Positions 17,068-62,708 of a stretch of DNA of 64,000 bases are shown piece by piece. The position numbers were made by a program, and so were the translations under genes. The notes below the pieces were generated by a model. The model saw only the letters and a program-made list of their open reading frames with translations, searched no databases and was not told where the DNA came from. This DNA comes from Escherichia coli (lineage in GTDB: Bacteria; Pseudomonadota; Gammaproteobacteria; Enterobacterales; Enterobacteriaceae). The number at the start of each line of letters is the position of its first letter. The stretch's first letter is position 1. The stretch lies in the NCBI RefSeq assembly GCF_013122565.1, contig NZ_CP053258.1. One strand, 5' to 3'.

Positions 17068-17164
17068 GCCGGATGCGGCGTGAACGCCTTATCCGGCCTA
17101 CAAAATCTTGCTAATTCAATATATTGCAGGACTACGTAGGCCTGATAAGCGTAGCGCATCAGGC
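17068..17164. repeat. pair of REP elements (BIME-like) downstream of fepA
   Basis: gccggatgcggcgtgaacgccttatccggcctac and gtaggcctgataagcgtagcgcatcaggc are canonical REP palindromes in inverted orientation. Confidence 0.65.
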
Positions 17165-17822: not shown

Positions 17823-17943
17823 TTGACAACATCTGGTACGATTCGCCCGCAGCCATCACTGACCGCGGGCGAAAGTGTAAAGCAGGTGCCCTACCATCCT
17901 GACCTGACAACCGGATATGCGGGGATTGCTCCCCGCACAACGG

Positions 17944-18096
17944 CTACTTCTTCGGTTCGTAAGCGAGAACAGCCTTAAACTCAATATTACGTTCCTTCAC
18001 CGTAAACTCACACAGCGAGTCTCCGACCAGAAGCGTAAATCCCAGTACCGTCAAACACAGCACTATGACTGCCACAAGGGCATATTTCGTCAGCAT
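17944..18096 (-). CDS. hokE: Hok-family type I toxin HokE
   Basis: 50-aa product [50 protein letters not shown]; the 78-aa track ORF is an artefact whose first codons lie inside IS150. Confidence 0.85.
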
Positions 18097-18192
18097 GTTT
18101 ATATTGCCTCCATGCGAAGAAGGGACTACCATCCAAATTGCTAGGTTTGGGTAGGTAGCCCCAGGGTGTACTGACCCCAAAAAGTTGGACAG

Positions 18193-19044
18193 TTAAACAC
18201 GAGGCATATAGGTCTGATTCCGATATTCAATTGGAGTCAGACCTTTTAATTTCAGGCTAATTCTTCTGCTGTTGTAGTATTCAATATATTCCGTAACAGC
18301 ATCCTTCAGTTCGCTTATATTACTGAACTCATCAAGATAAAAACACTCCGACTTTAAGGTTCCAAAGAAACACTCCACCACAGCATTATCCAGACAATTG
18401 CCTTTTCTGGACATGCTTTGTTTAATACCATGTTCTTTAAGGATATTTTGATATCTTCTCATACGATACTGCCATCCCTGGTCAGAGTGCAGAACAGGAT
18501 GCTCGTGAGGATTAAGCTTTTTGAATGCCTGATCGAGCATATTCTCAACCATGTTCATCACTGGTCTTTCCGAAAGGCTGTAAGAAATAACTTCATTGTT
18601 GAAGAGATCTATTACTGGAGACAAATACAGCTTGCGCCCATTGACTGCAAATTCAGTAACATCGGTAACCCACTTCTCGTTTGGCCGCGTAGCCTTGAAA
18701 TCTCTTTGGAGAACATTGGGGGCGGTTTGCCCTACCTCTCCTCTGTAAGAGCGGTATCGCTTGACCTTAATCGCTGCCTTAAGTGAGAGGGTTCCCATCA
18801 GGCGCTGAACAGCTTTATGGTTAATCTGTTTCCCTTCTCGATGAAGAGACAGCGTTACCCTACGGTATCCGTATCGGCCTCTATTCTCATGATAAATCTC
18901 ACCAATACGCTTTTTAACGTCCGCATACTTGTCAGGCTTGCTGAGAGCCTTTAGATGGTAATAAAACGTACTGCGCGGTATCTCCGCAGCCCTGAGAAGC
19001 TCATCAAGAGGATAAAACTGCCTTAGCTCGTTGAGTACTTTCAC
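18193..19044 (-). CDS. insK: IS150 transposase OrfB (InsK)
   Basis: 283-aa [34 protein letters not shown]... with integrase-core region; overlaps the insJ 3' end as expected for a frameshift-fused IS3 transposase. Confidence 0.9.
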
Positions 19045-19562
19045 TTTTTCGTGGGATGAGCTAAGGCTTTCAGCTTTTTTAGATACACAAGCCGCGTTTC
19101 AAGAAATCGAACTTGCCTTTCAAGATCCTCAATGCGTCGGTCTTTTGACAGCTCCAATGCTGATGCCGCTTTTTCTGGATCAACTGATATTGCAATGTTT
19201 CTTTTGGTGCCAATCTTGAGCGCGCGTAAACCAGCTTCTCCGCGCTCTTCATAAACCTTCAGCCACCTGGCTACAGAACCACTACCAGCAAGCATAAAGT
19301 GAGCAGCAGCCTGATTAAGGGACATGTGCTGCTCGATCACAGCTTTCACGACCTTAATACGCAACTCTGGATCAGCACTAACACCTTTAGGTTTGGGAAT
19401 TAAACCTTTTTCTCCATGTTTTTCATAGAGGGCAACCCATGTCCTGACCTGGGTTCGGGGGACACCAAAACGTGCCGAGATGATCCTGTAACCATCATCA
19501 GTAGTGAAGTAGTGATTCACGACTTCAAGGCGCTTTTCAAAAGGGTATTTTGGCTTTGACAT
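19041..19562 (-). CDS. insJ: IS150 transposase OrfA (InsJ)
   Basis: 173-aa ORF MSKPKYPFEKRLEVVNHYFTTDDGYRIISARFGVPRTQV... (helix-turn-helix N-terminus). Confidence 0.9.
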   Translation of the reverse strand: MSKPKYPFEKRLEVVNHYFTTDDGYRIISARFGVPRTQVRTWVALYEKHGEKGLIPKPKGVSADPELRIKVVKAVIEQHMSLNQAAAHFMLAGSGSVARWLKVYEERGEAGLRALKIGTKRNIAISVDPEKAASALELSKDRRIEDLERQVRFLETRLVYLKKLKALAHPTKK

Positions 19563-19984
19563 ATCAGGGGCTATTCCATTTCATCGTCCAACAAAATGGG
19601 TGCAGTACAGGGTTGATAGAAATATCTCCTGGGGCTTCATCTTTCCAGACCTCAGAGTAAACCTGAAACCGGAAAGCTTCAGGCACCCGCCGTTATCTTA
19701 CCCTTCCTCAACAAAATAGCTGTTTATTTATACAGTGAGTCCTGTTTCGGACTTCTCACTCCCCATTTGATCAACTGAAGCTGAACCCGTTTTTTTCTGC
19801 ATGCCGCAATCGTCAAAATTCTTCGCCACCAGCCAGCCGTGCCATAACTTGTCACATTGCAAAAGTAGCCAAATTGCTTCAGGCACCATCAGTTCACCAT
19901 CACCAAAAAAAAGAAACATTCCAGAACTTCCGCATCTCGCCCAGCCGCTCCGACTTCTATACTGAATAGAAAACGCCAACATAA

Positions 19985-21112
<1,128 letters not shown>

Positions 21113-40330: not shown

Positions 40331-41092
40331 ATGCAATTGAGCAGCAGTGAACCTTGCGTGGTGATCCTGACCGAAAAAGAGGTAGAGGTAAGCGTCAATA
40401 ACCATGCTACGTTTACCCTTCCGAAAAACTACCTGGCCGCCTTCGCGTGCAACAATAACGTCATTGAACTCTCAACGTTAAATCACGTATTAATCACCCA
40501 CATCAACCGTAACATCATCAACGATTATCTGTTGTTTTTAAATAAGAACTTAACCTGTGTAAAGCCCTGGTCGCGGCTGGCTACCCCGGTTATCGCTTGT
40601 CATAGCCGTACACCGGAAGTGTTCCGGCTAGCCGCCAACCACAGCAAGCAGCAACCCAGCAAACCCTGCGAAGCGGAGTTGACGCGCGCATTGCTTTTTA
40701 CCGTATTGTCTAACTTTCTTGAGCAATCGCGGTTTATTGCCCTACTGATGTATATCTTACGCAGCAGCGTCCGCGACAGCGTCTGCCGCATTATTCAAAG
40801 CGATATTCAGCATTACTGGAATCTGCGAATTGTCGCCAGTTCGCTATGTTTAAGCCCCAGCCTGCTCAAAAAGAAATTAAAAAACGAAAATACCAGCTAT
40901 AGCCAGATTGTCACAGAGTGTCGTATGCGTTACGCCGTACAGATGTTATTGATGGATAACAAAAATATCACTCAGGTGGCGCAATTATGTGGCTATAGCA
41001 GCACGTCGTACTTTATCTCTGTTTTTAAGGCGTTTTACGGCCTGACACCGTTGAATTATCTCGCCAAACAGCGACAAAAAGTGATGTGGTGA
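40331..41092 (+). CDS. envY: AraC-family regulator EnvY
   Basis: 253-aa ORF MQLSSSEPCVVILTEKEVEVSVNNHATF... with C-terminal AraC-type HTH (..ITQVAQLCGYSSTSYFISVFKAFYGLTP); AT-rich gene. Confidence 0.82.
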   Translation: MQLSSSEPCVVILTEKEVEVSVNNHATFTLPKNYLAAFACNNNVIELSTLNHVLITHINRNIINDYLLFLNKNLTCVKPWSRLATPVIACHSRTPEVFRLAANHSKQQPSKPCEAELTRALLFTVLSNFLEQSRFIALLMYILRSSVRDSVCRIIQSDIQHYWNLRIVASSLCLSPSLLKKKLKNENTSYSQIVTECRMRYAVQMLLMDNKNITQVAQLCGYSSTSYFISVFKAFYGLTPLNYLAKQRQKVMW

Positions 41093-41137
41093 AGGGCAAA
41101 GCGGAAACGGATAAGACGGGCATAAATGAAGAAGAAA

Positions 41138-41214
41138 TGGCGCGCCCTGCAGGATTCGAACCTGCGGCCCACGACTTAGAAGGTCGTTGCTCTATCCAAC
41201 TGAGCTAAGGGCGC
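41138..41214 (-). tRNA. argU: tRNA-Arg (anticodon UCU)
   Basis: Minus strand reads GCGCCCTTAGCTCAGTTGGATAGAGCAACGACCTTCTAAGTCGTGGGCCGCAGGTTCGAATCCTGCAGGGCGCGCCA: 7-bp acceptor stem, TCT anticodon in the CTTCTAAG loop, GGTTCGAATCC T-arm, encoded CCA. Confidence 0.92.
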
Positions 41215-62631: not shown

Positions 62632-62673
62632 GTCCTACCACTCGCCTGATTATTTTTAGCTATGTTGGATTTT

Positions 62674-62700
62674 GCCACGGTTTATACCGTGGCTTTTTTT
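62674..62700 (+). terminator. rho-independent terminator of the allD-allC-allE transcript
   Basis: gccacgg-tttata-ccgtggc followed by tttttt; itself flanked by inverted repeats gctatgttg / caacatagc. Confidence 0.65.
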
Positions 62701-62708
62701 GCAACATA

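Follow-up and report, generated by a model that had tools for sequence, protein, structure and literature searches.

A variant IS150 at a recurrent landing site in the Sok hairpin of the Escherichia coli hokE/sokE locus

What becomes of a chromosomal hok/sok toxin–antitoxin locus when a complete IS150 lands just upstream of the toxin gene, and how did the element come to be there? This question is raised by the hokE locus in a 64,000-nucleotide stretch of Escherichia coli contig NZ_CP053258.1 (the window), which holds a single hok gene and a single copy of IS150. The toxin gene itself is intact. The hokE ORF (17944..18096, minus strand) encodes 50 aa, and 49 of the 50 residues are those of K-12 HokE (A8V). 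Its syntenic orthologue is annotated as hokE and it matches the Pfam family HOK_GEF; an NCBIfam search of the product returned the HokA and Hok models only below threshold. The ATG of hokE is located at 18096, and 70 nt separate it from IS150.

The element (IS3 family, IS150 group) occupies 18167..19609 on the minus strand and is 1443 bp long. It starts at 18167 with TGTACTGACCCC... and ends at 19609 with ...GGGTGCAGTACA. The terminal inverted repeats are imperfect, end in TG...CA and share TGTACTG termini. Their alignment places IRR at 18167..18197, adjoining the hokE side, and IRL at 19579..19609, adjoining the distal hokE leader and the 3′ half of SokE. Both transposase ORFs are intact on the minus strand: insJ (orfA, 19041..19562) encodes 173 aa with HTH domains and differs from K-12 in one residue, and insK (orfB, 18193..19044) encodes 283 aa with the DDE/rve integrase core. 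The A AAA AAG heptamer for programmed −1 frameshifting (A6G site, 19074..19080, minus strand) is likewise intact, and the −1 fusion of insJ and insK yields 456 aa with zero stops. The transposase scores 413.8 bits against NF033516 (cutoff 160), matches PF00665 (rve) at 1.2e-28 and also matches HTH_21 and HTH_28. Judged from its sequence, the element has the features of IS150, namely a size of about 1443 bp, inverted repeats, a 3-bp duplication and a frameshifted two-ORF transposase with HTH and DDE domains. It shares an identity of 99.7–99.8% with thousands of annotated IS150 copies, and it differs from the K-12 element at 11 of 1443 nt and 2 aa. Extent, distance to hokE and intactness of insJ and insK all agree with the original prediction.

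IS150 is flanked by two copies of GGG, the left at 18164..18166 and the right at 19610..19612, where empty sites carry a single GGG. In silico excision, joining 18166 to 19613, yields ...GCCCCAGGGTTGATAG..., which is base for base an uninterrupted hokE/sokE leader. The rebuilt sequence equals the empty sites of K-12, Res13-Sevr-PER07-33, GF3-3 and GCA_018578885.1. Because this alignment runs across the junction without gaps, the two GGG copies reflect true target-site duplication rather than coincidence. The expectation of a complete IS150 that arrived by simple transposition is thereby borne out, as is the expectation that joining the two flanks restores a continuous hok leader.

The insertion splits the antitoxin gene. 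The K-12 annotation, which places sokE at −103 to −44 relative to hokE, was used for positioning. The 5′ fragment of sokE (18140..18166, plus strand), assigned by homology to K-12 b4835 and by fold, consists of the first 27 nt, in which a recognition tail that is single-stranded is followed by the lower stem's 5′ arm. The 3′ fragment (19613..19644, plus strand) retains the loop, the 3′ arm and the U-rich tail and has lost the promoter. According to homology and fold, IS150 enters between nt 27 and 28, at the foot of the hairpin where lower and upper stem meet. This cut parts both hairpin arms, and an intact gene for the antisense Sok RNA is absent from the window. A putative SokE promoter at 18104..18132 (plus strand; TTGCCT, 17-nt spacer, TACCAT), read from the sequence and placed by the 5′ end of K-12 sokE, is still intact and now points into the IRR of IS150. 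A consensus promoter scan of 17850–20000 returned no promoter-like site at this position at the scan threshold.

The hokE mRNA leader is divided in the same way. Its distal part (19613..19688, minus strand), comprising the 5′ hairpin and most of the Sok-target hairpin, corresponds to positions 1 to about 85 of the Rfam sok model and is detached from hokE. The proximal part (18088..18163, minus strand), still joined to hokE, corresponds to model positions of about 86–157 and carries the hokE Shine–Dalgarno sequence together with an in-frame ATG at −36 that is a candidate start of mokE. Against the 157 positions of RF01794, intact loci reach 85 and 84.4 bits, whereas the window gives two separate matches of 61.6 and 26 bits, the latter to the proximal part. 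The 61.6-bit match spans 19533–19688, of which 19613–19688 is real and the remainder aligns spuriously to IS150. The contiguous structured hok leader/Sok region is thus broken in the window, and the original prediction was right that IS150 cuts the Sok and Sok-target region. Its further suggestion that the mok frame is cut as well is probably wrong: the sole upstream ATG beyond IS150 does not keep its frame with hokE across alleles owing to 1-nt indels, and the in-frame ATG at −36 stays with hokE.

We consider it highly probable that a variant IS150 transposed into a known hotspot in the Sok hairpin and dismantled hokE/sokE as a regulated module. The element would have inserted by ordinary cut/copy-and-paste transposition, creating the 3-bp duplication. 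Its landing site is the foot of the hairpin that serves as SokE terminator and as Sok target in the hokE transcript, 9 nt past the G of GCCYC. With sokE split after nt 27, normal SokE antitoxin RNA should no longer form. About 76 nt at the start of the regulatory leader, along with the hokE promoter, now lie 1.45 kb away from hokE, leaving the hokE ORF, its Shine–Dalgarno sequence and the likely mokE start intact and directly downstream of insJ–insK in the same orientation. The locus appears dismantled as a regulated toxin–antitoxin module, since sokE is split, promoter and leader are displaced and hokE is left behind insJ–insK. Residual expression of hokE, if any, would have to come from read-through across IS150.

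Whether hokE is silent in this configuration is a separate matter. Silencing, as originally proposed, is an assumption, because the antitoxin gene is destroyed as well, the transposase genes read towards hokE and a phenotypic difference between sokE::IS150 and sokE+ is known from published genetics (PMC11551753). The opposite outcome is de-repression, in which SokE is lost and read-through lacking the inhibitory 5′ leader leads to low-level, unregulated HokE; the toxin would be leakily ON, and the allele would have a phenotype. In favor of such transcription, IS150 reads towards hokE, and the opposite strand holds the sole terminator-like site that was found within the element. The displaced hokE promoter is also upstream of mok/hokE in the same orientation, and the insertion has spared the hokE ORF, the Shine–Dalgarno sequence and the in-frame upstream ATG. 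The allele is not neutral in phenotype, as sokE::IS150 versus sokE+ sets RecA-dependent viability in the strains of PMC11551753 and a precise revertant to sokE+ arose there as a selected suppressor. However, that study did not investigate the mechanism behind the phenotype. In a reporter assay, the 150-bp ends of IS150 were without detectable outward promoter activity (PMC12095673). The orphaned SokE promoter, if correctly placed, would still make an RNA fully complementary to the junction read-through transcript. Stable carriage of the allele by about 9% of complete genomes also argues against appreciable toxicity, and transcription of the IS150 transposase is normally weak. Taken together, we regard de-repression as possible yet doubtful.

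Other signals at the junctions are sparse. A by-eye reading gave no assignment for the native hokE −35 element. A consensus promoter and terminator scan of 17850–20000 found no convincing outward promoter at IRR, and only an inward-facing terminator-like repeat. This is a 15-bp inverted repeat followed by a T-run inside IS150 (18210..18254, plus strand), whose orientation would stop transcripts coming in from the IRR side. It is plausible as a terminator for a truncated SokE′–IS150 chimeric RNA; the predicted fold of the chimera has −40.1 kcal/mol (z = −3.9). Pairing of the hokE Shine–Dalgarno sequence with IS150 in the folded read-through junction was not significant (z = −1.6) and was discarded.

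The configuration is neither distinctive nor novel. The sokE::IS150 allele is already known and common, and the site is a recurrent IS150 landing site. It has been reported in XL1-Blue, in more than 400 natural isolates and in some Shigella flexneri (PMC11551753, NAR 2024). The same allele, by nucleotide, orientation and duplication, is present in 487 of 5426 complete RefSeq E. coli genomes, and the right-hand junction of the window finds a 100% match in many genomes. We checked on Combat13F7 and REL606 that the window carries the published allele at the carriers' nucleotide. Combat13F7 shares both junctions, the orientation and the GGG duplication, and E. coli B REL606 shares the hokE-side junction and the orientation. 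In REL606, IS1 and a neighboring deletion have broken IS150 further, and IS186 is found on the downstream side of hokE; in contrast, the window has an intact IS150 and no IS186. A published coordinate on the evolved reference REL4536, 582,237 (insA-7/hokE), falls in cusA in REL606, so that coordinates are not transferable between the two. The K-12 hokE locus is also disrupted by an IS that spares the hokE ORF. As the original prediction stated, comparison with K-12 finds IS186 on the entD side there: IS186B (IS4 family) is located 18 bp past the hokE stop and removes the 3′ end of the mRNA. Unlike in the window, sokE and the leader are intact in K-12.

Recurrence extends beyond hokE. IS150 is found at the homologous Sok-stem position, 9 nt into the stem, in hokA, hokB, hokC and plasmid hok loci; for hokB and hokC this includes natural isolates, and hokC has two different IS150 junctions. 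In 23S01245-7 and GF60, hokA carries IS150 at the homologous stem position in the orientation of the window. The hokA/sokA::IS150 of K-12 MG1655, described by Pedersen & Gerdes 1999 as cited in PMC11551753, also has IS150 between the hok gene and the 3′ half of Sok, and its mok and sok are annotated as pseudogenes. It differs from the window in the paralogous locus, the reverse orientation, the lack of a target duplication and the loss of ~40 nt of leader beside the IS. Recurrent de novo IS150 insertions just upstream of hok genes, at trg/mokB and hokC/nhaA, are reported from experiments with REL606 derivatives (PMC5289635, PMC5419217, PMC3576414, PMC4301190), among them trg/mokB insertions in 10 mutation-accumulation genomes (PMC5289635). 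These are laboratory events in paralogous loci, whereas the window concerns hokE. The junction of IRL with Sok occurs in 1254 records, compared with 6088 IS150 places overall, and this single Sok-stem position accounts for at least one fifth of the IS150 copies in complete E. coli genomes. The hotspot is precise to the nucleotide and common to the paralogues. An explicit statement of it was not found in the literature searched.

In principle, the recurrence could mainly reflect selection to disable a toxin locus that is useless or costly, instead of a target preference of IS150. Insertions beside hokB, hokC, hokE and ldr rise in parallel in evolution experiments and have been read as loss of redundant functions (PMC5419217); structural-variant alleles of mokB are fixed in 50% of LTEE populations, and adaptive disruption has been proposed by Durrant et al. 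Selection, however, would accept hits anywhere in the ~400-bp locus, and the junctions sit at one stem-relative nucleotide in five paralogues. The trg/mokB hotspot is also seen in mutation-accumulation lines, where selection is minimal (PMC5289635). We therefore judge selection unlikely to be the main cause, although the parallel fixation suggests that it could contribute, and a target preference of IS150 is the reading that we follow.

In a tentative extension of this target preference, every hok/sok paralogue, whether on a chromosome or on a plasmid, might offer IS150 a dedicated landing pad in the conserved GC-rich foot of the Sok hairpin (GCCYC and four nucleotides, followed by the cut). 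By settling in a plasmid-stabilisation module, the element would gain a site where it does no harm and access to conjugative plasmids, and in the common orientation a hybrid unit would form in place of a simply dead locus. How IS150 would recognize the site, and what the hybrid unit would do, is speculation. If the landing-pad reading is true, the transposase transcript would include mok–hok as its distal cistron, and antisense transcription into insK would start from the orphaned Sok promoter. Two related ideas were tried and dropped. Insertion beside lookalikes of its own ends, as for IS3-family elements, was rejected because alignments of IRL and IRR with the hokE, hokB and hokC targets did not exceed shuffled controls. 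For orientation, records are split 1254 to 2, yet independent events number only about 7 versus 2, and no significant bias is claimed.

Within the hotspot, the copy in the window stands apart from those of other carriers in IS150 sequence type and in flanking haplotype. It differs by 11 SNPs from the hokE IS150 of Combat13F7, which is identical to the K-12 element and to hokA (K-12) and hokC copies in other strains. Against one hokA copy in another strain, there are only 3 SNPs, and most of the 11 differences are common to both. In the 28 nt left of IS150, several positions and a 1-nt indel distinguish the window from Combat13F7, and the flanks overall are ~2.3% divergent. The variant IS150 at hokE is absent from the complete genomes (n=5426), with a best whole-locus identity of 98.6%. 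Given the 11-SNP variant copy and the different adjacent flanks, the insertion in the window, judged from its sequence, most likely struck the same hotspot independently; the original prediction had already supposed an event independent of those in other strains, and this seems probable on the same two grounds.

There is little chance that the window instead holds the old insertion of phylogroup-A strains and E. coli B, inherited or recombined, with gene conversion or mutation altering IS150 afterwards. The match to Combat13F7 and REL606 in nucleotide position, in orientation and in the GGG duplication does speak for this. The same site, however, has been struck independently in four paralogous loci and on plasmids. 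The left-flank differences to Combat13F7 and the overall flank divergence also speak against common descent, as does a copy nearer to one in hokA (3 positions) than to that in hokE of Combat13F7. Moreover, the closest relatives by flank sequence, GF3-3 and GCA_018578885.1, have empty sites. Gene conversion between IS150 copies that replaced an inherited canonical copy could mimic an independent insertion. It is very improbable that IS150 marks a deletion or recombination which lost a second hokE copy: GF3-3 and GCA_018578885.1 do carry two tandem hokE units, and the window resembles their unit 2 most closely on its left flank and equals the unit 1 leader on its right flank, but this mosaic is opposite to that of an unequal crossover between tandem units, excision gives a perfect single unit collinear with K-12, and the idea was rejected because the intact GGG duplication contradicts it.

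For the window itself the finding is of little importance: a common and already described chromosomal toxin–antitoxin allele, which the original prediction recognized correctly. Because a phenotype is reported for laboratory strains (PMC11551753), sokE::IS150 is not to be taken as neutral in annotation or strain engineering. "Parallel" IS150 mutations in evolution experiments may reflect the hotspot and not adaptation. The hotspot possibly also bears on target choice of IS150 and on its spread to plasmids. The wider pattern has more use: one IS strikes a single nucleotide of the Sok hairpin time and again, across hokA, hokB, hokC, hokE and plasmid hok, and this bears on the frequent breakage of chromosomal hok loci.

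The IS150 copy beside hokE measures 1443 bp between junctions that read cccaGGG/TGTACTGACCCC on the left (18160-18170) and GGGTGCAGTACA/GGGttg on the right (19598-19615), and its terminal inverted repeats are imperfect. On the minus strand, insJ (19562..19041, 173 aa) and insK (19044..18193, 283 aa) are linked by an A AAA AAG slippery heptamer (19080..19074), where a -1 shift yields an uninterrupted insJ-insK fusion of 456 aa. This fusion scores 413.8 bits against the NCBIfam IS3-family transposase model (cutoff 160) and contains the Pfam HTH and rve (DDE) domains. Compared with K-12 IS150, 11 nucleotides and 2 amino acids differ. The 64-kb window holds no second IS150 copy and a single hok gene, hokE (17944..18096, minus strand), which shares 49 of 50 residues with K-12 HokE and whose ATG lies exactly 70 nt from IS150. 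Coordinates, reading frames and fusion confirm the original prediction of a 1443-bp IS150 with intact insJ and insK at this distance from hokE. Its claim that the flanking GGG is a target duplication survives excision in silico. Joining 18166 to 19613 gives ...GTAGCCCCAGGGTTGATAGAAAT... and rebuilds a continuous hok leader in which GGG occurs only once, as in the IS-free strains K-12 MG1655 and Res13-Sevr-PER07-33 (...GCAGCCCCAGGGTTGATAGAAAT...). When the excised window is aligned with K-12, Res13, both hokE units of GCA_018578885.1 and GF3-3, the sequences stay collinear across the junction without any gap. Folding of the rebuilt leader gives a 5' hairpin and a Sok-target hairpin, as expected (-62.7 kcal/mol, z = -3.0). 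Judged from the aligned sequences, GGG is a true target duplication, and since excision restores the leader, the insertion is a simple one.

The element lies inside sokE, the gene of the antisense antitoxin RNA of hokE. K-12 sokE (b4835) is annotated on the strand opposite to hokE and occupies -103 to -44, counted from the hokE ATG. By homology, SokE would start at 18140 in the window, and IS150 enters after SokE nucleotide 27. SokE folds into a single-stranded 5' tail followed by a long hairpin, in which the insertion point is a small bulge between a 10-bp lower stem (GCCCCAGG.../...CCUGGGGC) and the upper GAUA/UAUC stem. The Rfam sok model RF01794, which describes the hok-sense leader in 157 positions, reaches 85 and 84.4 bits at intact loci and is split in two by the element, as expected from the predicted cut through the hokE leader and Sok target. 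Positions 1 to ~85 fall at 19613-19688, within a match at 19533-19688 (61.6 bits) whose remaining part is a spurious alignment to IS150, and positions ~86-157 fall at 18088-18163 (26 bits). With sokE cut after nucleotide 27 and the sok model split, the insertion affects both toxin-antitoxin partners: the antitoxin gene is in two pieces, and neither the hokE promoter nor the first ~76 nt of the hokE leader is still joined to the toxin gene. In contrast, the mok-type frame, also proposed to be cut, probably is not. The upstream ATG at 19638-19640 meets a stop in the window allele, and in some alleles 1-nt indels shift it out of the hokE frame, while an in-frame ATG 36 nt upstream of hokE remains on the hokE side. 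For comparison, mokA, annotated as a pseudogene in the K-12 record, shares its 3' end with hokA there, so the two are in frame. K-12 hokE further carries IS186B 18 bp downstream on the entD side, as anticipated, a place at which the window has no IS. Across hokE alleles, 18140-18158, within the SokE 5' tail and the proximal hokE leader, is hypervariable and includes 1-nt indels. In SokE this stretch is single-stranded and serves recognition, and the neighbouring hairpin targeted by IS150 is invariant; the hypervariability could reflect diversifying toxin-antitoxin pairing specificity.

The window allele keeps a putative SokE promoter (TTGCCT, 17-nt spacer, TACCAT; 18104-18132) together with the first 27 nt of SokE, and transcription from it would now enter the right inverted repeat (IRR) of IS150. 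Within the element, near IRR, a 15-bp inverted repeat with a T-run (18210-18254, plus strand) faces transcripts entering from outside. It could terminate the truncated SokE transcript as a ~110-nt chimera, and it may shield IS150 from read-in transcription. hokE retains its ORF, Shine-Dalgarno sequence and in-frame upstream ATG; it could be transcribed only via insJ-insK read-through or if transcripts of the displaced hokE promoter traverse the 1.45 kb of IS150. A reporter study could not detect outward promoter activity of 150-bp IS150 ends (PMC12095673). As a regulated module, the locus has certainly been taken apart, and between simple loss of function and leaky toxin expression, the former is somewhat more likely. 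The published phenotype argues against regarding the allele as a neutral null: swapping sokE::IS150 for sokE+ alters RecA-dependent viability in the study strains, and a precise revertant was one suppressor recovered (PMC11551753).

This allele was named sokE::IS150 in that work (NAR 2024), which lists XL1-Blue, >400 natural isolates and some Shigella flexneri as carriers and reports that K-12 sokA is likewise interrupted by IS150 (PMC11551753). Of 5426 complete E. coli genomes searched with the 2401-bp locus, 487 share this arrangement, and only 3379 of 5413 matching genomes contain an uninterrupted 954-bp locus. At Combat13F7 hokE, position, orientation and GGG duplication are identical to the window. 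E. coli B REL606 shares the hokE-side junction, with an IS150 (L006, 588542-590445) that is itself broken by IS1A and an adjacent deletion, at the cost of ~230 nt of the transposase gene and the distal hokE leader. With IS186/IS421 downstream of hokE, three IS elements surround one 50-codon toxin gene in REL606.

The same position is used in other hok loci. A probe of 81 nt that joins the left (IRL) end of IS150 to the 3' half of SokE matched 1254 records at coverage >=80%. Matches taken from across this set group into three classes, and the members sampled lie at hokE (L001, entD/ybdK), hokB (L011, cybB/trg), hokC (L012 and L014, dnaJ/nhaA) and a plasmid hok (L013, plasmid p702_18_1). The IS150 copy closest to that of the window is located at hokA of another strain (L015), and GF60 (L019) has a further copy at hokA with gene order and spacing as in the other hok junction loci. 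In every paralogue read (hokE and L011-L015), the hok-side junction is exactly 9 nt past the G of GCCYC, the foot of the Sok stem: GCCCCAGGG^ in hokE, GCCTCGGTT^ in hokB, GCCTCGGGT^ in hokC and the plasmid hok, and GCCTCACTT^ in hokA. The transposase reads towards hok in all of these loci, and the reverse orientation occurs in K-12 hokA and an IncI2 plasmid. Taken as independent events, the two orientations stand at ~7 to 2, and we claim no significant orientation bias. The hokC junctions L012 and L014 differ, which implies separate events. With 1254 junction records against 6088 IS150 places in the collection, at least ~20% lie at this one structural position. IS150 is not restricted to hok loci, since a frameshifted 1444-bp copy in iroN is common to three strains, from Mali and Mozambique. 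Likeness of the target to the IS150 ends was looked for and not found. The literature agrees with a mutational hotspot for IS150: trg/mokB insertions are described in 10 mutation-accumulation genomes (PMC5289635) and have arisen repeatedly in evolution experiments, and hok/sok genes of E. coli and Klebsiella have been flagged as mobile-element insertion hotspots. The nucleotide precision across all hok paralogues suggests that IS150 recognises the Sok hairpin as a target and that selection against the toxin is not the sole cause.

IS150 copies in E. coli are of two sequence types, the canonical K-12 type and a variant 11-13 SNPs away. Among canonical copies (K-12 hokA, Combat13F7 hokE, those at hokB and hokC and that of the IncI2 plasmid), pairwise differences amount to 0-2 positions. 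The window copy is 11-12 positions away from these copies and only 3 from that at L015 hokA (canonical loci compared: L001, L004, L010-L014; variant side: window, L015, L017-L020). On the hokE side, the 28 nt next to IS150 show several mismatches and a 1-nt indel between the window and Combat13F7. The site is empty in the closest relatives by flank, GF3-3 and GCA_018578885.1, both of which have hokE duplicated in tandem. The best whole-locus identity is 98.6%, so no complete genome has the variant type at hokE; in the draft GCA_052983875.1, which has an identical EntD, the contig stops 37 bp into IS150 at the same junction. From these comparisons, the most economical reading is that another IS150 lineage inserted separately into this hotspot; gene conversion of an inherited IS150 copy could also explain the variant type.

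Among RefSeq complete E. coli genomes, the best identity to the window is 99.2% over 24 kb and 97.7% over the hokE flanks, which places the window in a lineage missing from that set or in a genome labelled other than E. coli, such as Shigella. In GF3-3 (L016 2901-3556) and GCA_018578885.1 (L007 4743-5397), the whole hokE/sokE unit is duplicated in tandem (~502 bp), which gives two hokE genes, and there is no IS. The window has one unit only, with hokE at 17944-18096, and the two halves of this unit resemble different units of the array. As in GF3-3, envY directly adjoins a tRNA-Arg gene (41141-41214, minus strand) at window 40331-41214; in K-12 this position is presumably taken by the DLP12 prophage and the ompT/appY region. 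Rfam matches above gathering score to ES036 (CssrF; 17102-17143, between fepA and entD) and STnc480 (62638-62704, near the window end) are unrelated to this insertion.

We conclude that the insertion is real and that the allele is ordinary: it has been published before, and its site is a known hotspot of IS150. The additional interest is modest and lies in the apparent independent hit by a variant IS150 and in the nucleotide-precise hotspot across all hok paralogues.
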